Source: Candidatus Methanophagaceae archaeon
Lineage (GTDB): Archaea > Halobacteriota > Syntropharchaeia > Alkanophagales > Methanospirareceae
Direction: 5' to 3'
NCBI GenBank assembly: GCA_003194435.1
Contig: PQXC01000008.1
Span: forward strand, 19,773-83,772
DNA length: 64,000 nt
Made by a program: the position numbers and the translations under genes
The notes under the pieces: model-generated
Databases searched by the model: none
What the model saw: only the letters and a program-made list of their open reading frames with translations
What the model was told of the DNA's origin: nothing
Part shown: positions 1 through 51,121 of the stretch, piece after piece
How the letters are laid out: each line of letters begins with the position of its first letter
How positions within the stretch are numbered: position 1 is the first letter of the stretch

Positions 1-2300
1 CTGTTTTCGGGTCGCCGTTACAGAGGATAGAGAATGCATATTACAGGAGTAGAGAAGATTTGATGGCGGAGCTGCTCGATTTGGAGGAAGGAGGTATAAT
101 TGCGAAAATAGGGATAAGGAATTTTCTTGAAGCCGACTATTTCGCCTGGTATCTGGATGAATGGAGCGAAGAAGTGAAGGACGGTGTAATTGAGATAGTG
201 AGGATGTTGAGTGATTACGACCCCGCAACGGTTGAGTTAGACCCGGATAGAGTGAAGGATTTGTTCAAGCGGTTATATCAGAATCTGGTGCCGAAGCGCG
301 TGAGGCATGACCTTGGCGAGTATTTCACGCCGGACTGGCTTGCGGAACTCGTGCTGAAAGAAGCGGACTACGATGGCAACTTAGATAAGAGGGTTCTTGA
401 CCCTGCTTGCGGTTCCGGGACGTTTCTGGTGCTTGCCATAAAAGAGATGCGGAATTATGCGGAAGAGCATTTCGTAACAGATAAGAGCGAGTTGTTGCGA
501 AAAATAGTGGGTAACGTTGTTGGTATTGACCTGAACCCGTTAGCGGTTCTGGCAGCGAGAGCGAATTACGTGATCGCGTTAGGTGATTTGATCAGGTATA
601 TACCGAAAAAAGAAGGCGTAGAGATTCCTGTTTATTTAGCGGATTCTATTCTGGTGAGCAGGAAGGTGAAATTTACGGGTGAGTGGGAAGTTTATCTAAC
701 GACAAGCGAAGGTGAGTTCTCTGTTCCCCAGGAAGTGATAAATAAAAATTTGCTGTCAAATGTGTTGGATGTGATAGAAAGTTGTGTGAGAGGAGATTAC
801 AGCGAAAAGGAGTTTGAGAAGCTGATAGAGAAGGATATTGTGGATTTGAAGGAAGAAACCATAGCATCTTTGGAGGGACTCTACGTTAAAATAAAGGAAT
901 TGGAAAAGGAGGGCAAGAACAAGATTTGGACGAGGCTGCTTAAGAATTCGTTTGCGCCTTTGTTGATGGGTAAATTTGATTTTGTCGTTGGTAATCCGCC
1001 GTGGGTTCGCTGGGGTTATCTACCAGAGGGATACAGAGATGCAACGCTCAAATTGTGGAAGGACTATGGGCTTTTCTCACTTAGTGGCATGGATGCACGA
1101 CTTGGCGCGGGTGAAAAGGATTTCTCGATGCTCTTCACTTATGTCGCCGCGGACCGCTACCTCAAGAAAGGAGAGAAACTGGCATTTCTCATAACACAAG
1201 AGGTTTTCAAGGCGAAAGGCGCTGGTGAGGGGTTCAGAAGCTTCAAAGTGAAAACTACGCCTGTAAAAGTAGTTAAGACGCATGACCTCGTTTCTTTAAA
1301 GCCTTTTGAAAGTGCTGCGAATAAAACCGCACTTATAATTCTGAAGAAAGGAGAGAAGACGGAGTATCCTGTGCCTTACATACTCTGGAGAAAGAAAAAG
1401 GGTATGAAATTGGATCCGGGGATTTCTTATGTTGACGCATTGGAGCGGACAGAGAGGGTGGAAATGCTGGCTAAACCCATTGGAACGCCTGTAAGTTCAT
1501 GGCAAACGTTTGAAGCAAAAACGGAAAGGATTCTGGATACATTGCGAGGGGAGTCAATATATCAAGCACGTGTAGGATCAAGAATTGACCCTTACGGCGT
1601 ATTTTACATGAAAATCAAGCATGTCTTCTCTGATGGCACGATACTTGTGGAGAACTTGCCGGAACTCGGTAAGAGGCGAATATCAAAAGTTGAGGAGAGA
1701 ATAGAAGGCGATTTGGTATTTCCTGTGGTTCGGGGGAGGGATATAAGGCGGTGGAATGCCATGCCAGAAATTTACGCCCTCATTGTTCAAGACCCTAAAA
1801 AGAGGGTGGGTTACGAGGAGGAGTGGATGAAAATCAACTTACCAAGGACTTTTGCGTATTTGCATAAGTTTAAGGAAGTTCTTCTGAGCAGAGGGTCTAA
1901 TGTCGTGAGAGAATTGGCAGAAAAGACCGCATTTTACACGATGTACAGCATTGGAGAATATACCTTTGCACCCTACAAAGTGGTATGGAAGAGGATGGCA
2001 AGCGACCTTGAGGCGGTGGTTCTCTCAAAGATCAAGACTCCGATTGGCGAGAAGGATGTGATTCCAACGGATACAACTTCGCTTATTCCTTTTAAGAGCG
2101 CAGAAGAAGCGCATTATGTATGTGCGATTTTGAATTCTTCTCCTGTCAGGTTTTGTGTAAGGTCTTATTCTTCTGGGGGTCGCGGGTTTGGTGCTCCTTC
2201 TATTATCAGACATTTTGGAATACCGAAATATGATAAGGAGAAAGAGGTTCATTGGAGAGTTTCGGAGCTTTCCAAAAGGGCGCATACGTTGGCTAAATGA
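1..2300 (+). CDS. N6-adenine DNA methyltransferase, type IIG RM / BREX PglX-like; 5' end lies outside the window (the reading frame is open upstream of position 60) and the gene ends at an in-frame TGA
   Basis: Translation contains the SAM-binding motif DPACGSGTFLV, the catalytic motif NPPW (VVGNPPWVRWGY), and LGEYFTPDWLAELV. The frame of the 60..2300 ORF has no stop back to nt 3. Confidence 0.7.
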   Translation, partial: VFGSPLQRIENAYYRSREDLMAELLDLEEGGIIAKIGIRNFLEADYFAWYLDEWSEEVKDGVIEIVRMLSDYDPATVELDPDRVKDLFKRLYQNLVPKRVRHDLGEYFTPDWLAELVLKEADYDGNLDKRVLDPACGSGTFLVLAIKEMRNYAEEHFVTDKSELLRKIVGNVVGIDLNPLAVLAARANYVIALGDLIRYIPKKEGVEIPVYLADSILVSRKVKFTGEWEVYLTTSEGEFSVPQEVINKNLLSNVLDVIESCVRGDYSEKEFEKLIEKDIVDLKEETIASLEGLYVKIKELEKEGKNKIWTRLLKNSFAPLLMGKFDFVVGNPPWVRWGYLPEGYRDATLKLWKDYGLFSLSGMDARLGAGEKDFSMLFTYVAADRYLKKGEKLAFLITQEVFKAKGAGEGFRSFKVKTTPVKVVKTHDLVSLKPFESAANKTALIILKKGEKTEYPVPYILWRKKKGMKLDPGISYVDALERTERVEMLAKPIGTPVSSWQTFEAKTERILDTLRGESIYQARVGSRIDPYGVFYMKIKHVFSDGTILVENLPELGKRRISKVEERIEGDLVFPVVRGRDIRRWNAMPEIYALIVQDPKKRVGYEEEWMKINLPRTFAYLHKFKEVLLSRGSNVVRELAEKTAFYTMYSIGEYTFAPYKVVWKRMASDLEAVVLSKIKTPIGEKDVIPTDTTSLIPFKSAEEAHYVCAILNSSPVRFCVRSYSSGGRGFGAPSIIRHFGIPKYDKEKEVHWRVSELSKRAHTLAK

Positions 2301-2432
2301 TACTACGAGCAAAATGATTTGGAAGCGCGGGAGGAATTGAAGGAAGTGGAGGAGAGAATTGATAAGATGGTTGCGGGATTGTATGGGATTACGGATAAGG
2401 AGTTGGAGGATGTGAAGAATAATGGAACCTGA
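2301..2432 (+). pseudogene. Methyltransferase C-terminal tail, in frame immediately after the TGA at 2298-2300 (YYEQNDLEAREELKEVEERIDKMVAGLYGITDKELEDVKNNGT*)
   Basis: Same frame as the methyltransferase. Carries the ...LYG(I/L)T.EEL..V... C-terminal motif typical of type I/IIG/PglX methyltransferases. Confidence 0.5.
2322..2416. repeat. Direct repeat copy 1 (methyltransferase tail) flanking the AT-rich cassette; copy 2 is at 4509-4603
   Basis: gaattgaaggaagtggag...attgataagatggttgcgg.attgtatgggattacgg...gagttggaggatgtgaagaa is present at both sites. Confidence 0.8.
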
Positions 2433-3141
2433 GGTTGCAGGAGTTTTAAGCCAGTTCAAATCTATCAAGAAACATGCAAGTCTACTTCGTCAACATATCT
2501 TTTATGATACAAAGGAGGAGTTAGAAAGTCTTGTTGAAGAATTCACGGATGCAAAAATACATTTTGAAAGTATAAGGCACAAACAAAAAATTGACATATA
2601 TCTTCGGAGTATAAAATCAACGGAATGGAAATATAGAACCGATGAACAAAAAGCATTATTAAGAACAATAGACATAGAATGCGATAAAGCTATTGGTGCT
2701 TTAGAAAGCATAGCCACTCCCTTGTCGAAAGATGAATTAAAGAAACTTACACCTATCAGAGAGGAATTGGAAGAGCTATCAGAAGTATTACCGGATATAA
2801 ACTATGAAAGAAATTTAGAAGAAGCAATAAAGGAGTACGAAAAGGGAGATTATCTCGCATCGGCATTAATCTCCGGCCGTGTAATAATTTATGCCTTGGG
2901 TCAAATTCCCGGAGAGTCCGATGAAGAAAAAGTGAAATTTTTGCGAGAAAAAGGGATTATAGAGAAAGGCAGAAAAGATGTTCACGAGTCAATAATAAAA
3001 GCGAGTAGAAGAGCAAGAAATTTCTTCTCTCACGATATTAAAGTGTTTCCAACACCTTCTGAGGCACTTTCATTGTTAGGTGATGCTATTGGGATTTTAG
3101 GAATTGTTAGCAAAGTTTTGAAAGGGGAGGGAAAGTCTTGA
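2422..3141 (+). CDS. Hypothetical protein with a C-terminal HEPN-like RNxxxH motif (ASRRARNFFSHD); first gene of the AT-rich cassette
   Basis: 239-aa ORF. Visibly more AT-rich than its flanks. R-N-x3-H matches the HEPN Rx4-6H signature. Confidence 0.35.
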   Translation: MEPEVAGVLSQFKSIKKHASLLRQHIFYDTKEELESLVEEFTDAKIHFESIRHKQKIDIYLRSIKSTEWKYRTDEQKALLRTIDIECDKAIGALESIATPLSKDELKKLTPIREELEELSEVLPDINYERNLEEAIKEYEKGDYLASALISGRVIIYALGQIPGESDEEKVKFLREKGIIEKGRKDVHESIIKASRRARNFFSHDIKVFPTPSEALSLLGDAIGILGIVSKVLKGEGKS

Positions 3142-3193
3142 AAAGGAAAAACGGTTTGCCAGAAGTGGTGGAAGAGAAAAAAAATAGATTGGA

Positions 3194-3646
3194 ATGAGCG
3201 AAGAAAGAAACAAAGCTGAAGATGTGGAGAGATTGAAGGAAGAATTGAATGAGTGGATAGACCATAGAATTGTGGATAATAACGCCTTTATAAGTTCTCC
3301 TAAGAAAGAAACCCTCTCTTTACTCTTTGCTTTACTTCCCCTCTTGGCTATTTGCGGCTCATGGCTATGGGGCATTCTAAAACAGTATTACATTTATTCT
3401 CTCCATCTTGTATTCATACTCTGGACTGTGGTAGGTATTACGGAGTCAATAGCAAAAAGGAAAGGGACAAAAGAATTTATTAAGGCGCATATAAATTTGA
3501 AAGATGCAGTTTATTTTTCTTTCCGTAATGTGAAAGCAATGGTATTTTCCTTCGATGTGTTATTTATTCTCTGTATTTTTGTGCTTTTGCTTGTTAAAGA
3601 TTTGAGATGGTGGCTATGGGGTGATCGTCACATTAGTATTATATGA
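3194..3646 (+). CDS. Small hypothetical membrane protein (about 3 predicted TM helices)
   Basis: Hydrophobic stretches LLFALLPLLAICGSWLWGIL, LHLVFILWTVVGI, LFILCIFVLLLV. AT-rich. Confidence 0.3.
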   Translation: MSEERNKAEDVERLKEELNEWIDHRIVDNNAFISSPKKETLSLLFALLPLLAICGSWLWGILKQYYIYSLHLVFILWTVVGITESIAKRKGTKEFIKAHINLKDAVYFSFRNVKAMVFSFDVLFILCIFVLLLVKDLRWWLWGDRHISII

Positions 3647-3899
3647 AAAAGCAGTAACAAATACCGCGACAATGGTGGAGGGAGATTATAAAATAGAACT
3701 GAACACTTTTAGGAAAAAAGTACTATCAGGAATTGCAATAGTCCTCATTATAGGCTTAATCGCGGCTTTAGTCTATGTATTCTATAAAACACCCTTAGAA
3801 ATATACTTCATGATTTCAGAAGATCCATCTGGACTTTTTGGAATAATTCTAACCTTATTTGCAATCTTGACAAGTTATGCTCTTTATCAGAATATTTGA
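3621..3899 (+). CDS. Small hypothetical membrane protein (2 TM)
   Basis: GIAIVLIIGLIAALVYVF and GLFGIILTLFAILTSYALY. Overlaps the previous ORF by a few codons (operon-like). Confidence 0.25.
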   Translation: MIVTLVLYEKAVTNTATMVEGDYKIELNTFRKKVLSGIAIVLIIGLIAALVYVFYKTPLEIYFMISEDPSGLFGIILTLFAILTSYALYQNI

Positions 3900-4129
3900 G
3901 TATAAAATTCACAATTGCTGACGTTACCGTACAAAAAAATAAACTTTCCATGCTCAAAATGGAGATTGATAAAATGAACGTTGAAGAACTCGAGAGGGTG
4001 AAGAAAAATTTGCGAAAGTGGCCTTTACCGATAATCGAAAAGTTTTTGTTTTTCAACTACTACGGTTTCATGCCCACGAGATATACTTTTGAGGTAGACG
4101 AGAAAGATGAGAAGTCAAATAGAAATTAG
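3896..4129 (+). CDS. Small hypothetical protein
   Basis: 77-aa ORF in the cassette; no recognisable motif. Confidence 0.2.
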   Translation: MSIKFTIADVTVQKNKLSMLKMEIDKMNVEELERVKKNLRKWPLPIIEKFLFFNYYGFMPTRYTFEVDEKDEKSNRN

Positions 4130-4487
4130 TGCGAAGTTAAAAGTGTTATATGCAATTGGGAGGGGACTCAGGATGATTGTAGTCGGATGGAATAATGGGT
4201 CACCTAATAATAGAACCGGAGCTGGATACGGCGTCCGAATAGTACGCGAAGATAGAGATATGTATTTCCAGAACACGTGGTCTTCTGTGATCATTGAGCT
4301 TGACAATGGAGATTTATTGGATGTTAGGTTATCAGCTTCATTTTGGAGAGGTTGTACTGAACTGCGGAATGTTAAAATAGGAAAATGGATGCTTGAGCAG
4401 GGGCTTGCTCCGTGGCCAAAAGGTGACCCGCCAAAACTCAAATTAGAACCGATAGGGAATAGAAGATTCCGGTTAAGTCGCTTGTAA
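4107..4487 (+). CDS. Hypothetical protein (last ORF of the cassette)
   Basis: 126-aa ORF; ends 10 nt before the second copy of the methyltransferase tail. Confidence 0.3.
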   Translation: MRSQIEISAKLKVLYAIGRGLRMIVVGWNNGSPNNRTGAGYGVRIVREDRDMYFQNTWSSVIIELDNGDLLDVRLSASFWRGCTELRNVKIGKWMLEQGLAPWPKGDPPKLKLEPIGNRRFRLSRL

Positions 4488-4496
4488 CTTCCCAAC

Positions 4497-4640
4497 AATT
4501 TGCAAGCGAGAGAAGAATTGAAGGAAGTGGAGGGGGAAATTGATAAGATGGTTGCGGAATTGTATGGGATTACGGGTGAAGAGTTGGAGGATGTGAAGAA
4601 GACGTTAGGGATTTTGAAAGGCGAGGATGGTGAGCGATAG
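4497..4640 (+). pseudogene. Orphan second copy of the methyltransferase C-terminal tail (LPNNLQAREELKEVEGEIDKMVAELYGITGEELEDVKKTLGILKGEDGER*); no start codon
   Basis: By eye, roughly 90% nucleotide identity to 2322-2416 over about 95 bp. Confidence 0.55.
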
Positions 4641-4847
4641 ATAGGATAGTTTTAGAGATGATATACCTCTTTTGTGTGTTCGTGTTTCTCCATCAGAAGA
4701 GACAGCTATTTGAAAGATATAATAAAATTGATGGACTGATGGATATGGACAATCCCTTTTATAAAATCATACCTTATATTATGTTTTATACCTTTGAGAC
4801 CAAAAAGAGAAAAAAGAGACTAAAAGTAAGGGAGAAGAAGGAGGGAG

Positions 4848-5156
4848 ATGGGTGTAGATATAGACATAGAGATAGAGAATGAGCATGAGAATCGGTTATT
4901 GAGACGTAAGGAGGTTTTCTTCCGGTTAAAGTATGATGGTGGCTCACCAAGCAGAGCGGAGGCACGTAAGGCTCTGGTAAATGCACTCCGGTGCAGTCCG
5001 GACCTGCTTGTGATTGACTGGATGCGTGCAGAATTTGGCAAGCGTGAGGCGGTAGGCTATGCGAAGATATACGAGAATGAAGATAGGATGAAGGAGATAG
5101 AGAGGGAGCATATATTAAAGAGGAACTTTGGAGGTACAAATGGAAATGATACATAG
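4848..5156 (+). CDS. rps24e: 30S ribosomal protein S24e
   Basis: [34 protein letters not shown] matches the S24e family pattern; followed directly by S27ae, as in archaeal operons. Confidence 0.85.
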
Positions 5157-5313
5157 CTACTATGAGGTATTAAAAGAGGAAGATGGAGGATTGAAATTGA
5201 AGAGGAAGCGGAGAACATGCCCGAGATGTGGTGCCGGAGTCTTCCTGGCAGAGCATGAAGACCGCTACTCGTGCGGTAAATGTGGCTATACCGAGTTCAG
5301 GAAGAAGAGATAG
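5128..5313 (+). CDS. rps27ae: 30S ribosomal protein S27ae (zinc ribbon)
   Basis: [28 protein letters not shown]4 zinc ribbon; 61 aa. Confidence 0.85.
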
Positions 5314-7652: not shown

Positions 7653-8357
7653 ATGAGGAAAGCAAGGACAAGAGCAAGAGGGGACGAGGAGAAGGTGATT
7701 GCTTACATGACATCCAGGTTATTTCCATGGAACTTTATTGTGGAAGATGTTGATTCGGAGTCATTAAGGCATTTTGTTCCTTATGCGATCCAGATATGTG
7801 AGGATAAGGGAATAAAGAAGGGCTCGATAGAGCGAGACAGGGTAGACAAGGTAAAGGAGGTGATAGAAAAGGAAGTGAAATGGATGCTGAACGACTATCT
7901 ACATCAAGAAGACAGGGATGCAGCGAGGATACATGGCAAATTCTACGCTCAGTATCCTTTCGCGTTCGCTCAGGCACTGATATATACAATCCTATACCGA
8001 TTGGGAGCGAGCCTGGAAGACGTGGTGAATATAAACGCACTTGGTGAGTTGCTGGAGCTGGATATTAAAGCGATAAAGAGAAGAGAGCGTTTCATTCGCG
8101 ATTTGATATCAAAGAACGAGGAGAAGGCATTGAGGATATTCAGCAAAGCCATGTTGAACAGGAAAGTGATATCAGAAGAGGGTGATTATATAGGCAGCGT
8201 GAGTGACATCGTATTTGATAGTGAAACAGGTACCCTCAAAAGTCTGATATTGAATAAGCAGAAAGGTTCAGAGAAGCTAAAAGTACCTATGAATGATATG
8301 AAATTGAATTTATATAGCAGGAATATCGTCTTAAAATATGTAAAGAAGGAGCAATGA
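7653..8357 (+). CDS. Hypothetical protein with a C-terminal PRC-barrel-like domain
   Basis: C-terminal VISEEGDYIGSVSDIVFDSETGTLKSLIL resembles a PRC barrel. Confidence 0.4.
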   Translation: MRKARTRARGDEEKVIAYMTSRLFPWNFIVEDVDSESLRHFVPYAIQICEDKGIKKGSIERDRVDKVKEVIEKEVKWMLNDYLHQEDRDAARIHGKFYAQYPFAFAQALIYTILYRLGASLEDVVNINALGELLELDIKAIKRRERFIRDLISKNEEKALRIFSKAMLNRKVISEEGDYIGSVSDIVFDSETGTLKSLILNKQKGSEKLKVPMNDMKLNLYSRNIVLKYVKKEQ

Positions 8358-10378
8358 CCACTTTCTCCTCTCATTCTTATTCGTCACCCCCGTTCTTAGA
8401 GCGGTATCTGAATGATTCGCTCAGTCTCCCAGATTTCTATTCCTTAGCTACATTGCTGAGAGTACAGAAGAGAGAAGCAGAAAGGTTGGTGATAAAGCAT
8501 AAGGAAAGAGCAGCGGGATGCAGGATCAGGGATCTGTTCTGCACGAAGGAGACGAGGGAACTGAGACGTGAGATTCTGGAGATGCTATCGCTCTATGCAG
8601 TGACTCGAATCGGTAGGGAGATGATTCTCACACTCATACCCACACAAGACAGAGAGGAACTCCAGAGGCGGTTCACTGATATACGAGCAGGTATAGAACT
8701 GGTGCAATTACTGGGCGCTGAGAATGTGACGAGGGTGCGGGAAATGCTATCAAAAGCGGAGATAAGGGGTATTGGCATCTTTAAAGCTCCCGTCGTCGCC
8801 GTTCAGGATAGAGATATAGAGCAGTTGATAAAATCAAACTATGGCGATTTTGTAACTGTGGAATTTCTGGATTCAACGGAGAAAGCGGAAGAGCTCGTGA
8901 ATAGAGAGAATAGCATTTTACTGATCGGTGAGCATGAGCATGAGCACGAATACGATGAACCTGGTATCATAACGAAACGGGTTGATGATTTATCAGAGCC
9001 CTGCGAGATATGTCCAGAGTTCGTGGTCAGGAGCTATGTAGCGAAGAAGAGTGCGATAGAGGTACTGATAGAGATTCTTGAGCAGTTTGAGGCTATCAGG
9101 AACTCAGAACTATTCAAAGAAGTCTCAATTGCCGATTTAAAAGCTGTATTATCGCTTATCAGTGTTGGTGAAGCAGAGGTTAAAGACAAGGACAGGGATA
9201 AGGATAAGGGGGCTGAGAGCTTCGACGAGATGATCTTGAGATATGAGGAGGAGATAAACAGGGAAGCCGTACGGATAATGAAGACGGGCGGTGGAGCAGC
9301 TGAATTCAGAGCTTATCTGGATGATATTCTGTTGCAGATGGCAGATGAGCTGATGCTCAAGGGAGAGGACAGAATCACACTCCGGGAAAGTGCTCTGGAT
9401 CTGGATGCTGGTGAGCCACCATTTGAATTCAGGAGGGATAAGATAGAGAGCCTGCGCCTGAAGTATAACAGGGAGAGGGGAGAGAGGAGCTATTACCGGT
9501 TGAGTGAATTGGCGAAGCAGCTGGAGCAGCAGAGGGAAGTGGTGAGAGAAGGTATCAAAAAACTCTTCTACCTCGATTTCATGCTCGCTACGGCGCTGTT
9601 CGCTCGTGACTTCGAGTTGAATCCCCCGGAGCTTATAGATGGGGGTCTGGGGTTGGAGATGGGGAAGAACATATTTCTGAAGGCTGAAGAGTTAAAAGGC
9701 GGAGAGAAGGTAGTTCCGGTATCCTACTCGATAGGGGAGGTGAAATTGGGCATCTTCGGCGCTACTCCACATCCTGTAGCCATCCTCACAGGTGCCAATA
9801 GCGGGGGTAAGACCTGTTTGCTTAATATGCTTGCAACATCTGTTATACTCACCGAGCTGGGTCTGCCAGTGCCTGCCGAGAGGGCGGAGATACCACTGCT
9901 GCCTCTTTATCTGTACAGGAGAAAGATGATAAAGAAGACGGGGTCTTTTGAATATTCGATGAGGGCATTGAGCAGGATATTCATGCGAGAGGGCGGGAAA
10001 GTGGTATTGATAGATGAACTGGAAGCGCTGACCGAACCAGGAGCAATGGGGCGTATAATGGCTTCAATCCTGAATAACCTGCCTGAAGGTACTCTCGGGG
10101 TGGTGATAACGCATTTGATCCATGAGATATTGCCGCATATAAGTATGGCGAAGATTCGGGTGGATGGTATAGAAGCCGAAGGTCTGGATGCCTCGGGTAA
10201 CATTATTGTGGATCGGCAGCCGATGTTCAACCATATCGGTTCGAGCATGCCGGAACTGGTGATAAAGAAGCTATTGGGACGAGTAAGGAATGAGGAATTG
10301 AGAACAGTATATGAGGAGATAATAGATGCACTGGCAACTGAGCGAGCGGAATTGGGCTCAAAGAGCAAAGATGGATGA
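8354..10378 (+). CDS. MutS-family ATPase (MutS2/MutS-like; no obvious mismatch-binding domain)
   Basis: Walker A ILTGANSGGKTCLLN and Walker B VVLIDELEALTEPG. MutS domain V-like arrangement in the C-terminal third. Confidence 0.6.
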   Translation: MTTFSSHSYSSPPFLERYLNDSLSLPDFYSLATLLRVQKREAERLVIKHKERAAGCRIRDLFCTKETRELRREILEMLSLYAVTRIGREMILTLIPTQDREELQRRFTDIRAGIELVQLLGAENVTRVREMLSKAEIRGIGIFKAPVVAVQDRDIEQLIKSNYGDFVTVEFLDSTEKAEELVNRENSILLIGEHEHEHEYDEPGIITKRVDDLSEPCEICPEFVVRSYVAKKSAIEVLIEILEQFEAIRNSELFKEVSIADLKAVLSLISVGEAEVKDKDRDKDKGAESFDEMILRYEEEINREAVRIMKTGGGAAEFRAYLDDILLQMADELMLKGEDRITLRESALDLDAGEPPFEFRRDKIESLRLKYNRERGERSYYRLSELAKQLEQQREVVREGIKKLFYLDFMLATALFARDFELNPPELIDGGLGLEMGKNIFLKAEELKGGEKVVPVSYSIGEVKLGIFGATPHPVAILTGANSGGKTCLLNMLATSVILTELGLPVPAERAEIPLLPLYLYRRKMIKKTGSFEYSMRALSRIFMREGGKVVLIDELEALTEPGAMGRIMASILNNLPEGTLGVVITHLIHEILPHISMAKIRVDGIEAEGLDASGNIIVDRQPMFNHIGSSMPELVIKKLLGRVRNEELRTVYEEIIDALATERAELGSKSKDG

Positions 10379-19427: not shown

Positions 19428-20663
19428 TCACATCACCTTCTCCAGACTCATATCCAGCATCTGCTTCGTCTCTCGTGCAAGCGCATCAGGTAGTCCAGTG
19501 ATGTCAACATTCAGGAAACCGCGAATGATCACCGATGTGGCTTCCTCTTCACTCAAGCCACGTGCCATCAGATACAGTATCGCCTCCTCCGCTATCTTAC
19601 CCACTGCGGCTTCGTGAGAGAGGTCAAGGTCTTTACGAACAGCTTTGAGTTCCGGTATAGAGGTTATTGCCGCATTATCGGAGAGCATCAACCCTCTGCA
19701 TTCTATGTGCCCACTTGCATTTGCACCCTCGCCTATCACCTCACCACGTGCGATGACCTCCGCGTTATCGGTAGCGAGCACTCTGGAGATTATCTCCGCT
19801 CTGCTTCGTTCGCCCTTCAGCACTGCTCTTGAGCCCATATCTATTCGGGCATTGCCTGATGCATAGATAATGGACTGGAAATTGGCTCTCGCATTCTTAC
19901 CCTCGCAATATGCAGTTGGATACGTTTGAAGTGATTTCAACGGCGTCATTAAGATATAATTACTTATGAAAGTCCCGTCATCTTCTATCACCACTGCGGT
20001 TCTCGGTCTCACCTCCACACCTTCGCTCCAGTTGTGTATCATAGTGAAGGTGATTTTGGCACCGCGCTTCACATAGAACTCAGAAACGCCGAGATGAAGT
20101 GCTGACTGGACTGCATGAGCAACGGAACAGCCAGTGATGATATGAAGCTCCGAGTTCTCTTCTGCAATTATGATATTATGAACCTTCTGCCCGGTTTTAT
20201 CGGTGGTGATGAATAAACAAGCCTGGACCGGAATAGTCACCTTCGAATTGGCTTTCGCTCTGATAAAATAGCCATTCGTCTGGTCCAATTCAACATCTGC
20301 GGTATACTTATCCATGTCAACAGGTATTGCCTTCCACAGATAGTCAGTGGCGAGCCATTCATGCCGTTTCAATGCTTCTGTAGTGCTCATGAGCTCCAGA
20401 CCCGGTGATTTTACACGCGAGAATACCACAGAGCGGTCTTGCAGCAGGAAAGAGCCGGACCTGCCACTCTCAGAAGGTTCAATGCCGGCACGAAGCAGAC
20501 TCTGCTTATGCTCCTGAGGGACTTCAGCGAGCGACTTGAGGGCATCGTGCTCACTACCCGCTGTATTATAGCGCTCGAGGTTGATGTCATCGCCCAGACT
20601 TGCTTTCTTCTCTCGCGCACGCTTCGCACGCTCTATTATATCCCGCATATCTCGTTTATTCAT
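19428..20663 (-). CDS. sufB: Fe-S cluster assembly protein SufB/SufD family
   Basis: Directly downstream of sufC on the same strand. beta-helix-type repetitive core. ~411 aa, typical of archaeal SufB. Confidence 0.75.
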   Translation of the reverse strand: MNKRDMRDIIERAKRAREKKASLGDDINLERYNTAGSEHDALKSLAEVPQEHKQSLLRAGIEPSESGRSGSFLLQDRSVVFSRVKSPGLELMSTTEALKRHEWLATDYLWKAIPVDMDKYTADVELDQTNGYFIRAKANSKVTIPVQACLFITTDKTGQKVHNIIIAEENSELHIITGCSVAHAVQSALHLGVSEFYVKRGAKITFTMIHNWSEGVEVRPRTAVVIEDDGTFISNYILMTPLKSLQTYPTAYCEGKNARANFQSIIYASGNARIDMGSRAVLKGERSRAEIISRVLATDNAEVIARGEVIGEGANASGHIECRGLMLSDNAAITSIPELKAVRKDLDLSHEAAVGKIAEEAILYLMARGLSEEEATSVIIRGFLNVDITGLPDALARETKQMLDMSLEKVM

Positions 20664-48109: not shown

Positions 48110-51100
48110 TTATGCCCTCCTGCTGTTATTTCCATCACGCATCCTATTATACATATTCTGCGACTCTGAAAAAATATGAATAAGCCATCTACTCCCTTCT
48201 CTACTCTCCAAACGCTCAATCGCATTTCTTAAAACCTCCTCATCCATGTATCCCATTTCATTCAATCTCTCCTTTATATCATTCACAGAATCACTCCCTG
48301 AAAAAGAATGCAATAGTAGAATATGTCCTGCAACCACACGCTCACTTTCCTCTCCTAATCCTAATATCCAACCACAAGCCCTTATTGCATACTCTATTCT
48401 TCGCTCATTCGTGAAAAGATTTCCCGCACGCAGCATATCCTCCCTCGCTCTACCATACTCGCCTAATCTCACATAAGCGAGACCTCTGTTGTAGTATGCT
48501 TCCGCAAGATCAGGATTCAGTTTTATCGCCTTGTCGTAATCTTCTATCGCTCTATCATACTCGCCTAATCTCACATAAGCGAGACCTCTGTTGTAGTATG
48601 CTTTCGCATAATCTTTATTCAGTTCTATCGCCTTATTGAAATCTTCTATCGCTCTACCATACTCGCCTAATTCCGCATAAGCGAGACCTCTGTTGCTGTA
48701 TGCTTTCGCATAATCTTTATTCAGTTCTATCGCCTTATTGAAATCTTCTATCGCTCTACCATACTCGCCTAATCTCACATAAGCGAGACCTCTGTTGCTG
48801 TATGCTTCCGCAAAATCAGGATTCAGTTTTATCGCCTTATTGAAATCTTCTATCGCTCTATCATACTCGCCTAATTCCGTATAAGCGACACCTCTGTTGT
48901 TGTTGTATGCTTCCGCATATTCATTTAGTTCCAGAGATGTGCTATATGCCTTAATTGAACTCTCAAAATCCTTCTGTTCATATAAAGCATTTCCGAGATA
49001 GAAGAAATGTGCTGCAAGAGAGAGGCGAGCGATATCCTTTCCAGGAGCTTCAACATGTTCCACTTTTTTGAAATAATTGTAAGCGAATAGCAGCATGCGA
49101 GCATCGGGAGGTGCATTTTCTGCGGCATCCGCTATCAGGTAGAAGAAGCTCATATTTTTACCTTCATCAAAAGCCTTTTTTATCTCCTCTCTTATCACTG
49201 CCTTCGCATCCATTAAATCTAAAGAGGCTTCAAGGAACTTTTCAGCAAGTTCTCTATCTTCTATTCCGCCTTCTATCGCACTATTTATCGCATCTCGCCA
49301 ATACTGTGATAATGAATATAACCTTCCTTCTCTCTGCAGATATTTTTCAAGCGCCTCTTTCTGCTCTTTTGCCTCATTTCCTTGTGCAATTCTTTCATAA
49401 ATCGCATCATAAAGGAATATTGAGAAAATTCTGAGCTTTGAGATTGTGATTAAGAGCTTAATGAAAGTCATATCACTTTCATCATTACGCAATAATTTTC
49501 TTATTGTGTCCATCAGAATGTTCTTAACACCTTTTGGCAATCTCTCTATTTCTTCCATGCTGAGTGTTCTATTGTGATGTTCATGCATCAAATGTCGTAT
49601 GTAGAAAGGGGCGTTGTTTGACCTCTCAACCAATAATTGCATCGCTTTGTTCAGCACTTCGCTCATTCTTCCGCTCTCAATCATTTCACATGCTTCATCT
49701 GGAGGAATGCCAGCAATACTTACATTGAAATACTTTATGTAGCTCGCAATGATCTTCCACATATCATCCGTTTCAGGTTTTACTTCATAAGGTATCAGTT
49801 CAAACCCTCTATCATAAACAACTCTCTGAAGAATGTCCTTTTCAGAATTTCTCATCGTTATAATCATTTTTGCACGGTTTCTCTTTGCAAAATCAACAAT
49901 TCTCTCGCATTTATTCCTTAACGCTTCTTCCACATTGCCATTCGCTTTCAAATGTCCGAGAGCATCAATTACAATGAATTTCCTATATTCATGCTCAACC
50001 TGTGATATAGATGATTCGTATTCGTATGAATTAAGGAATATAACTTCTTCCTTCCCCCGCTCGATAATACGCTCAACAAGGAGAAGCATGTATGTCGTCT
50101 TTCCCACACCTATATCGCCGTGTATAGCGAGAATCTGCCCCTCCGAAGGCTCTTTAAACTCATAATAATTATATACGGTTGATTTGAACTCTTCCCATGT
50201 CTGAAATCCCTTTTTGTAGGGCGTTTCTAAAAATCTATCATCTTCAACTACATTCTTCAATTCATCTTCATTTCTCACGCGCTTATACGCCTCTATTGTT
50301 CTTATTGGAGGTCTTTCTTCAAGCTCAGGAGGTTCAATAACATTAAAATCAAGTTCAAAATGCAAATTGTATCGCTCAAGAACATCTCTTACACTATTCA
50401 ATTCCTCTTCGATTTTCTCTTTCACTTTATCTGCGACATTGTTTTCTTTGTGGTCTTTGTATTTCAGGAGCATTTCTACATATATCTCGCTTCCTTTTAT
50501 CTCTACTCTCTCCACTATTTCGTGTTTCCAGTATTCTTCCTGGGATTCCTGCGGGATTTGTGGTAGACGCCTGTAATCTTCTGGGGGTAGGCGATTCTTA
50601 CCGCAGTCAAGGGCATCTGCGAGCCTGAGCAATGCTGCTAAAAATCTTGTGCGAACATTCTCACCTGCGATATGAATTGTGCTCTCCTCATCAACATCAT
50701 TTATGGCAACCTTACTGCTGTGAGCACGGCAAATCCATTGAATAATTGTCGCTTCTGTTTTACCACTTAACTCTATTTCTCTCAAATGCTTGCTGATATA
50801 TTCAGCACTTCGCTTGTGATGTTCTTTCCTGATTCTATTGCAAACTTCAGGATCATTAATATCCTCACCTTCCCGCATTAACATCCCGATGTCATGGAGC
50901 CAAGCACTGCATTTCAGCAGGAAATTCTCATATTCACTTAGATTCACACCTTCGGTGAGTTTATCCAGTATTTTGATTACTGCCTCTGAATGCCCTGGAC
51001 CGTGGTCAGTGTAATATCTGAAAAGACCTTGAGAGTGTATATATGGTAGTTTTCGCATGCAAAACTCCTTTATTTTTTCAAGTCTTTCACCGAGATTATG

Positions 51101-51121
51101 ATTAGACATGAATCTCACCAT
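48110..51121 (-). CDS. HD-domain / P-loop NTPase / TPR-repeat protein (STAND-like candidate defence NTPase)
   Basis: N-terminal HD (HGPGHSEAV...AWLHDIGML...RLADALD); Walker A LAIHGDIGVGKTTYML; Walker B KFIVIDALGH; at least 8 C-terminal TPR units (AEAYxNRGLAYxxLGEYxRAIEDFNKAIELN). Confidence 0.6.
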   Translation of the reverse strand: MVRFMSNHNLGERLEKIKEFCMRKLPYIHSQGLFRYYTDHGPGHSEAVIKILDKLTEGVNLSEYENFLLKCSAWLHDIGMLMREGEDINDPEVCNRIRKEHHKRSAEYISKHLREIELSGKTEATIIQWICRAHSSKVAINDVDEESTIHIAGENVRTRFLAALLRLADALDCGKNRLPPEDYRRLPQIPQESQEEYWKHEIVERVEIKGSEIYVEMLLKYKDHKENNVADKVKEKIEEELNSVRDVLERYNLHFELDFNVIEPPELEERPPIRTIEAYKRVRNEDELKNVVEDDRFLETPYKKGFQTWEEFKSTVYNYYEFKEPSEGQILAIHGDIGVGKTTYMLLLVERIIERGKEEVIFLNSYEYESSISQVEHEYRKFIVIDALGHLKANGNVEEALRNKCERIVDFAKRNRAKMIITMRNSEKDILQRVVYDRGFELIPYEVKPETDDMWKIIASYIKYFNVSIAGIPPDEACEMIESGRMSEVLNKAMQLLVERSNNAPFYIRHLMHEHHNRTLSMEEIERLPKGVKNILMDTIRKLLRNDESDMTFIKLLITISKLRIFSIFLYDAIYERIAQGNEAKEQKEALEKYLQREGRLYSLSQYWRDAINSAIEGGIEDRELAEKFLEASLDLMDAKAVIREEIKKAFDEGKNMSFFYLIADAAENAPPDARMLLFAYNYFKKVEHVEAPGKDIARLSLAAHFFYLGNALYEQKDFESSIKAYSTSLELNEYAEAYNNNRGVAYTELGEYDRAIEDFNKAIKLNPDFAEAYSNRGLAYVRLGEYGRAIEDFNKAIELNKDYAKAYSNRGLAYAELGEYGRAIEDFNKAIELNKDYAKAYYNRGLAYVRLGEYDRAIEDYDKAIKLNPDLAEAYYNRGLAYVRLGEYGRAREDMLRAGNLFTNERRIEYAIRACGWILGLGEESERVVAGHILLLHSFSGSDSVNDIKERLNEMGYMDEEVLRNAIERLESREGSRWLIHIFSESQNMYNRMRDGNNSRRA
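48470..48910. repeat. Near-identical tandem array of 102-bp units (4-5 copies) encoding consecutive TPR repeats inside the HD-NTPase-TPR gene
   Basis: ctcgcctaat(c/t)(t/c)c(a/g)(c/t)ataagcgagacctctgttg..gtatgct(t/c)(t/c)cgca...atcgccttattgaaatcttctatcgctcta.catactcgcc recurs with a 102-nt period. Confidence 0.8.

Follow-up and report, generated by a model that had tools for sequence, protein, structure and literature searches.

At the left end of a 64,000-nucleotide stretch of ANME-1 (anaerobic methanotrophic archaea; Methanophagales) chromosomal DNA, positions 19,773 to 83,772 of contig PQXC01000008.1 (the window below), a type IIG restriction-modification (RM) gene adjoins the genes for ribosomal proteins S24e and S27ae. 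Between them lies a cassette of three small genes, bracketed by two copies of the 3'-terminal coding sequence of the RM gene, here called the tail. The two copies are referred to as Tail A and Tail B, and the first and last cassette genes are referred to as ORF1 and ORF5 (ORF, open reading frame); their positions are given in Table 1. ANME-1 archaea are uncultured and control much of the marine methane flux, and to our knowledge the acquisition and turnover of their antiviral genes have been known just as “variable hotspots.” Comparison of this locus with its relatives suggests a concrete mechanism for the turnover of ANME-1 defence genes, in which a short coding tail serves as the homology handle.

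Table 1. Coordinates of the RM gene, the tail copies, the cassette genes, and the ribosomal protein genes in the window (aa, amino acids; TM, transmembrane)
Feature	Position	Strand	Basis or remark
Type IIG gene, 3' 2.3 kb	1..2300	+	PADLOC REase_MTase_IIG; Pfam; 5' end outside the window
Nonsense codon CGA to TGA (Arg to stop)	2298..2300	+	43 codons ahead of the natural gene end
Tail A, in-frame C-terminal continuation without the last 12 codons	2301..2432	+	Translation; junction shared with sister contigs
Direct repeat copy A	2317..2421	+	Repeat family D1, 89% identity
ORF1, 239 aa, N-terminal three-helix domain plus DUF4145-type HEPN domain (predicted)	2422..3141	+	
Six-TM gene (~325 aa), pseudogene here	3194..4129	+	Split: 3194-3646, 3621-3899, 3896-4129
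ORF5, 104 aa, stand-alone B3-like DNA-binding pseudobarrel protein (predicted)	4173..4487	+	
Tail B: repeat copy B (4498-4602), the enzyme's genuine last 12 codons, and stop	4498..4640	+	
Ribosomal protein genes S24e and S27ae	4848..5313	+	Pfam Ribosomal_S24e, Ribosomal_S27

The type IIG gene and its repeated tail

The enzyme frame is open from nucleotide (nt) 3, so the gene extends off the left end of the window, and its N-terminal ~300 aa lie outside. The fragment within the window matches the PADLOC model PDLC03630 (REase_MTase_IIG) with an E value of 2.8e-247 over profile positions 289-1053 of 1100, matches N6_Mtase, Eco57I, and MmeI_Mtase in Pfam, and contains the motif GNPPW in its translation. 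A full-length orthologue in L162 (L numbers denote the related loci and contigs compared with the window, and P numbers denote homologous proteins) is 1,066 aa long, is 92% identical, and matches the same model over positions 55-1099 of 1100, tail included; the closest relatives of the methyltransferase are found in Methanophagales/ANME-1 metagenome-assembled genomes (MAGs). Judged by these profile matches, the gene encodes a single-polypeptide type IIG RM enzyme. The initial annotation, made from the bare sequence, had called it a type IIG/PglX-like methyltransferase. The type IIG half of that name stands, but the protein is not a PglX of the bacteriophage exclusion (BREX) system: its best NCBIfam BREX model scored 45.7 bits against a cut-off of 400, and no brx or pglZ gene was seen in the flanks.

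Translation confirmed the coordinates first given for the end of the gene. The frame is closed by the TGA at 2298-2300 and is then open for 43 more codons (YYEQNDLEAREELKEVEERIDKMVAGLYGITDKELEDVKNNGT, followed by the stop) to a TGA at 2430-2432. At the codon beginning at 2298, all relatives have Arg (LAK-R-YYEQNDL), which is encoded by CGA in L102, L107, L101, L109, L170, L162, L163, and L166, and TGA is found only in contigs identical to the window. Because the cassette-bearing sisters L102, L107, L101, and L170 have CGA, the stop codon is unrelated to the insertion, and the comparison of alleles identifies it as a recent, strain-specific C-to-T nonsense mutation. The enzyme of the window strain thus lacks an intact reading frame, the TGA taking the place of a conserved Arg and dropping the last 43 residues. 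Recoding of TGA was considered and rejected, since TGA closes both ORF1 and Tail A and sister strains carry CGA at 2298. Farther upstream, in the C-terminal (target-recognition) part of the enzyme, positions 1877-1929 mark an indel/replacement hotspot, with 53 nt in the window and ~164 nt in L162, L013, L014, and L001, and the L163 enzyme is just 75% identical to that of the window across its last 186 aa. These differences suggest specificity-domain variation among co-occurring strains.

The last ~140 nt of the enzyme gene encode a helical tail containing the sequence EELKEVEEEIDKxVAELYGITDEELEEVKKTLGVLKGE, and part of this sequence is present twice in the window. The direct repeat (2317-2419 and 4498-4600) is 103 nt long and 89% identical without a short identical core (blastn E values of ~1e-29 to 1e-33); it is the only long repeat within the first 9 kb, and it has no third copy in the 64 kb. 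Tail A ends in EDVKNNGT, and in sister strains the enzyme reads through Tail A to this end. The stop codon that follows lies within the first codons of ORF1 (AATAATGGAACCTGA), and the overlap of the ORF1 ATG with the enzyme stop suggests translational coupling. Tail B begins ~10 nt past the ORF5 stop, has no gene body in front of it, and ends in KKTLGILKGEDGER and a stop codon; it is the second, start-less copy (4500-4640) that had been pointed out at the outset.

The 2,076 nt between the copies (2422-4497) have a GC content of 36.8%, versus 45.1% for the methyltransferase gene, 44.6% for the next 7 kb, and 46.0% for the whole window (standard deviation of 3.0 for windows of the same size), and they are the lowest-GC 2-kb stretch of the window. 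The AT richness reported for the intervening DNA is therefore real, and the insert is compositionally foreign. The arrangement is no product of misassembly, because both junctions are crossed in independent assemblies from several metagenomes, namely L001/L098, L003, and the allelic L107/L161 and L170. tRNA-targeted integration is excluded, since there is no tRNA gene, and no Rfam family at the gathering threshold, across the whole 64 kb.

Occupied, empty, and mosaic alleles

The S24e/S27ae right flank was used as a marker for recognising the same chromosomal locus in other strains; the two proteins are 100% identical in L161-L170, and the genes farther to the right encode an M48 peptidase and other housekeeping proteins. 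Three contigs from the same sample series (L162, L163, and L166) have an empty site at this locus: the same enzyme gene, uninterrupted, with one full tail, then the same intergenic DNA and the 100%-identical S24e/S27ae genes. The 3' end of Tail B and the DNA downstream of it are collinear with this single tail and its flank. L162 is 98.9% identical to the window at the nt level over 1-1876 and 94.9% over 1930-2418, and it encodes an intact 1,066-aa enzyme. The alignment of related loci is thus in line with the original proposal of an insertion at the 3' end of an RM gene, and the cassette, flanked by tail repeats, is polymorphic for presence and absence. The occupied alleles are in turn mosaic. 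L107 differs from the window only in the ORF1 N-terminal domain (65-83% nt identity) and L170 only in the TM gene (39-74% nt identity), the remainder of each being 97-100% identical to the window; cassettes are modular and recombine.

The tail itself is shared by genes that otherwise have little in common. It is 80-95% identical at the nt level across type IIG genes whose bodies share 29-46% protein identity. The Tail A/ORF1 junction of the window recurs in L102, L107, L109, L103 (copy 2), L101, and L170, and tail-ORF1 junctions come in two forms: in one the tail is full and there is a TAATG overlap, and the other, a derivative that the window has, lacks ~36 nt. Such junctions stand behind enzymes with low identity to that of the window (L094, 46%; L103, 41%; L109, 40%; L149, 29%), and in L171 (enzyme 35% identical) the tail is followed by the TM gene. 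Nucleotide similarity to the enzyme genes of L094, L103, L109, L149, and L171 is mostly limited to 2263-2419, at 80-95%; beyond this segment, L094 and L103 each share one further conserved block, and L109 and L149 show short, weak matches (other conserved blocks of the enzyme gene lie at 394-662 and 880-1075). The tail is thus a conserved block common to otherwise divergent genes, and its proposed role as a recombination junction gains from the finding that the same tail-ORF1 junction is shared across divergent enzymes. It also bounds replacement of the enzyme gene or one of its domains, because L164 has a divergent enzyme before the same tail: in this contig (positions 1-360, corresponding to the locus at 2100-4640 of the window) an enzyme C terminus ~50% identical in protein precedes a tail that is 93.6% identical at the nt level over 2263-2418, with the same S24e neighbour.

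The association of ORF1 with the tail is close within one clade. A tail precedes 13 of the 14 ORF1 homologues with at least 69% identity, and the 14th (in L110) has a 35-nt tail fragment. Other loci carry other genes between their tail copies: a 354-aa TM protein in L103/L105; a 248-aa protein, a mad8-like ATPase, and an AlbA_2 protein in L149/L152; a Cys-rich 241-aa protein in L110; and a 367-aa TM protein (TM367) with an RNase III-like protein in L171. The left ends of the internal tail copies vary, from codon ~6 in the window to ~1 in L103, ~22 in L149, and the last 62 nt in L171. The L171 contig (1-9000; Halobacteriota MAG GCA_049642765.1) shows an entire island downstream of a type IIG gene, in the order tail, TM367, RNase III-like gene, partial tail, mad8-like 800-aa ATPase, a TIR protein with the ORF1 N-terminal domain, and GmrSD; its enzyme gene is apparently split, the called ORF stopping short of the tail.

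Overall, we consider it probable that the locus holds a three-gene, AT-rich cassette seated on a conserved type IIG tail, that such cassettes are gained, lost, and swapped through tail homology, and that this one provides an ORF1-based defence, partly decayed here. Gain and loss would proceed by homologous recombination between tail copies. Gain could be the Campbell-type integration of a circle that bears part of the tail, and loss could be the reverse event, a deletion between the direct repeats; a dedicated recombinase would not be required. The entry point of new cassettes appears to be the enzyme-proximal tail, and partial tail copies would remain as scars. A Campbell-type model of this kind would reproduce every architecture seen, including a proximal copy that is truncated on the right and a distal copy whose left end varies.

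Two other origins of the repeats were weighed. Tail B could be a relic of gene replacement, in which an incoming enzyme gene with Tail A and the cassette was joined illegitimately to the locus, leaving the last ~145 nt of the resident gene and the repeats as a by-product. Illegitimate joins predict the differing left boundaries that the internal tail copies show between loci, and enzyme bodies do get replaced here, as in L164 (body 50% identical, same tail and S24e). Yet the empty allele L162 has the same enzyme gene as the window (98.9% at the nt level), so that the two alleles differ by the cassette and one tail copy, and at least five independent architectures all join within the last ~140 nt of a 3.2-kb gene, which is unlikely if joining is random and expected from tail homology. 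Because empty and occupied alleles have the same enzyme gene, the relic model is less parsimonious, and we regard it as unlikely.

The second alternative is a site-specific mobile element, integron-like or integrative, whose recombinase is encoded elsewhere and for which the tail is the att site. An insert flanked by direct repeats of a gene 3' end is the classical signature of an integrative element, and the stacking of cassettes at the enzyme-proximal tail recalls an integron array. Against this, no integrase or recombinase domain was found in the cassette ORFs or the neighbouring genes examined, the boundaries of the repeats vary, and the copies lack a short identical core. Nor does the tail DNA form an attC-like hairpin, its folding being no better than that of shuffled sequence on either strand (z-scores of +0.6 to -1.5). 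Because there is no recombinase at the locus, the repeat boundaries vary, and an attC-like hairpin is lacking, a site-specific mechanism is disfavoured, and we judge it very improbable; the cassette locus has the defining features of neither an integron cassette nor a site-specific integrative element.

The three cassette genes

ORF1 encodes a 239-aa protein that had been credited with a C-terminal RNxxxH motif of the HEPN type, and the motif is present and the HEPN-like assignment is supported. The sequence R199-N-F-F-S-H204 (RNFFSH, residues 199-204) lies at the characteristic C-terminal Rx4-6H position, and the AlphaFold2 model (pLDDT 88.9) is all-helical, with an N-terminal part (~residues 1-120) and a C-terminal domain, in agreement with the all-alpha helical bundle of HEPN proteins. 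Foldseek searches with this model returned 2hsb with a probability of 1.00 and several other HEPN proteins at 0.5-0.66. The ORF1 of the window has no match to Pfam DUF4145 at E <= 1, and 30 of 96 homologues do match; one of these, P0118 (E value of 1.7e-23 to ORF1), scores 26.6 bits against a cut-off of 23.1 over the region aligned to R199-NFFS-H204. Because ORF1 itself falls below the Pfam threshold, its membership in DUF4145 is by transitive homology. From the model and these relationships, ORF1 is predicted to consist of a helical N-terminal domain and a DUF4145-type HEPN domain. Within the family, R199 is kept in 92 of the 96 members and H204 in 70, and RNxxSH is intact across the tail-linked clade. 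Nothing relevant came from a sequence-profile search of the PDB with the ORF1 family. An MNT-HEPN (HepT) toxin-antitoxin pair was rejected, there being no NTP_transf_2 or Polbeta match in any cassette ORF.

The N-terminal ~115 residues of ORF1 recur in P0117 and P0119, fused to a TIR domain in place of HEPN. P0117 is 60% identical to ORF1 over the N-terminal ~105 residues and matches PADLOC PDC-S35 (TIR) with an E value of 4.5e-33. Defence proteins characteristically show such exchanges of effector, here HEPN for TIR, on a shared N-terminal domain.

Five small genes were originally listed between the tail copies. The open frames exist, but they represent three genes, since ORF2, ORF3, and ORF4 are fragments of a single gene of ~325 aa with about six TM helices. 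This gene is one intact ORF in L107 (325 aa), L170 (325 aa), L094 (360 aa), and L171 (367 aa); in the window it is broken, relative to L107, by a 17-nt deletion near 3618 and a 1-nt deletion near 3879. The protein has a conserved C-terminal soluble region (hydropathy, pairwise BLAST). Contigs from several samples break inside the membrane gene at positions corresponding to ~3532-3564 of the window (L002 and L004-L007 on the left; L008, L009, and L011 on the right), and L002 (2008-3069) runs on into a DDE_Tnp_1 (IS4-like) transposase gene; these breaks represent an insertion sequence (IS) polymorphism within the cassette.

The start of ORF5 was placed at 4173 (104 aa) because its homologues are nearly all 103-105 aa long; the 126-aa ORF first listed, from 4107, probably starts too far upstream. 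ORF5 shows the seven-stranded pseudobarrel of the B3 fold (EcoRII-N, BfiI-C, NgoAVII, plant B3), a DNA-binding fold of the kind found in restriction enzymes, and DNA binding is thus predicted. The gene is frameshifted in L107 and represented by two short ORFs in L003. In L158 (1717-7753), an ORF5 homologue (66% identity) overlaps the stop of a 1,095-aa SNF2/helicase-NOV_C gene and is followed by a run of MNT/HepT pairs and then a DUF1156 gene, an arrangement from which it follows that the small B3-like protein recurs in other defence loci.

In the window strain, the enzyme gene has a nonsense codon and the membrane gene two frameshifts, which leaves ORF1 and ORF5 as the sole intact genes. The locus is decaying in this strain, and the module has probably lost full function here.

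Possible function and relation to known systems

ORF1 is a putative abortive-infection sensor-effector RNase, in which the variable N-terminal domain would sense a trigger and the HEPN domain would cleave RNA. By analogy with PrrC-EcoprrI and RAZR, it would be expressed together with the RM enzyme and back up restriction as a second line of defence. The membrane protein could be a partner or a second effector, and the B3-like ORF5 could act as a DNA-binding regulator or sensor. It can further be speculated that the tail helix is a docking site through which ORF1-type effectors monitor the enzyme.

Several observations tell against tail-mediated exchange of a defence cassette. In its 5' part the empty-site tail is like copy A at most diagnostic sites, and in its 3' part it is like copy B, a pattern close to that predicted for a reciprocal crossover; two of the ~7 diagnostic sites, though, disagree with a single crossover, and gene conversion could account for this disagreement. 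The ORF5-tail-ORF1 junction was found in none of the contigs examined, so there is no sign of an excised circle or a tandem copy, and no donor was found in viral (IMG/VR: tail DNA pattern, ORF1 profile, ORF5 profile) or plasmid (ORF1, ORF5) collections. The initial annotation had tied the cassette genes to the tail repeats and named, as evidence to the contrary, the same genes at an unrelated locus without them. The tie is seen in the close clade (13 of 14), but it does not extend to more distant relatives: a tail precedes none of the 32 ORF1 homologues below 69% identity, whose neighbourhoods, where examined, consist of housekeeping genes, and ORF5 homologues likewise occur at unrelated, tail-less loci. 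Because stand-alone relatives of ORF1 sit among housekeeping genes, an ORF1-type protein does not need the enzyme. Finally, 25 of the 96 family members have Tyr or Phe in place of the catalytic His, and the three cassette proteins have no match in PADLOC, PHROGs, or NCBIfam and no significant match in Pfam.

Some of these points would also fit a cassette without a role in defence, a selfish, addiction-type element or a decaying passenger on a recombination-prone gene end, with ORF1 a non-catalytic helical protein. The lack of defence-library matches and the loss of the motif His in a quarter of the family agree with such a passenger, as do the broken enzyme and membrane genes of the window, the broken ORF5 of L107 and L003, and the IS in the membrane gene elsewhere. 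We nevertheless think this distinctly unlikely: the genes that lie between tail copies elsewhere are defence genes (mad8-like ATPase, AlbA_2/Schlafen, TIR/PDC-S35, GmrSD, DUF262-like), RNxxSH is kept in the tail-linked clade, and the N-terminal domain and the TM gene show allelic diversification as separate modules, as is typical of arms-race genes.

The proposed defensive role of ORF1 has a parallel in PrrC-EcoprrI, in which an RNase effector is embedded in an RM locus and acts, as a latent RNase, once restriction is countered. PrrC has an ABC-ATPase N-terminal domain and lies between the hsd genes of a type Ic system. As with PrrC-EcoprrI and RloC, which are anticodon nucleases of type I RM loci, an RNase effector gene is here attached to an RM locus, and co-expression with the enzyme appears likely from the arrangement. 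Unlike PrrC, ORF1 has a single-polypeptide type IIG enzyme as its partner, and the cassette adds a membrane protein and a B3-like protein. PrrC and RloC have been classed as HEPN proteins (PMC3710099).

DUF4145 is a HEPN family with fusion and operon linkage to RM systems (PMC3710099, PMC3632139), so that the pairing of HEPN and RM genes, first taken to be uncharacterised, had already been described. In RAZR/PD-T7-4, a DUF4145 domain has been shown experimentally to be a trigger-activated abortive-infection RNase (PMC13017515). ORF1 differs from RAZR in that its N-terminal domain has three helices rather than a RAZR-type zinc finger, and the ORF1 of the window lies below Pfam thresholds and appears to be coupled translationally to a type IIG enzyme. 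There is also a likeness to PDC-S35, in that P0117 shares the ORF1 N-terminal domain and its gene is part of an island that follows a type IIG gene with tail copies; the effector of P0117, though, is TIR and not HEPN, and the ORF1 of the window has no PDC-S35 match.

With integron arrays and integrative elements, the locus shares repeat-bounded cassettes, apparent stacking by a platform gene, and presence/absence polymorphism. It differs in having no integrase, attC hairpin, or fixed boundaries, and in that its repeat is coding sequence of the platform gene; homologous recombination is the simplest account of it. In the shuffling of hsdS target-recognition domains (“domain movement”), short conserved blocks likewise flank divergent modules as recombination handles, the corresponding blocks of the window being 2263-2419, 394-662, and 880-1075; unlike these, the tail handle would also serve the gain, loss, and stacking of whole downstream cassettes. 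An earlier report describes structural variation of adenine methyltransferase genes in ANME-1 populations (PMC13385816), and term searches of it gave zero occurrences each of “direct repeat,” “HEPN,” and “homologous recombination.” Our literature searches found no description of an enzyme's coding tail as a repeat that brackets, stacks, and transfers cassettes between type IIG genes, and none of a trio made up of the ORF1 N-terminal domain joined to HEPN or TIR, a six-TM protein, and a stand-alone B3-like protein. RM-linked DUF4145 HEPN genes and structural variation of ANME-1 defence genes were thus already known, and the tail-bracketed cassette arrangement is a new form of such RM linkage.

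More tentatively, the tail may be a recombinase-independent, integron-like acquisition platform in ANME-1, possible but not yet likely in our view. On this proposal, tail-bearing DNA would be captured, placed in the enzyme's transcription unit, stacked, and exchanged between type IIG loci, building tail-punctuated defence islands. The locus also yields candidate archaeal defence proteins, namely a new N-terminal sensor domain that pairs with either HEPN or TIR, a conserved six-TM partner, and the small B3-like protein that stands alone. Should tail handles of this kind prove general, a search for RM genes with duplicated 3' ends would offer an inexpensive way to find new defence genes in uncultured lineages.

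Two genes elsewhere in the window deserve mention. A gene at 8354-10378 (+) encodes a 674-aa protein with a weak, sub-threshold match to MutS domain V (27.2 versus 30.2 bits) and adjoins a gene for a PRC-barrel protein in all sister contigs. At 48110-51121 (-), in the second-lowest-GC region of the window (~38%, around 49.2-51.4 kb), lies a gene for a 1,003-aa protein with an HD-CE/HD domain, a STAND NTPase domain (nSTAND3), and many TPR repeats; this architecture is Avs-like, and the gene may be another acquired defence gene.

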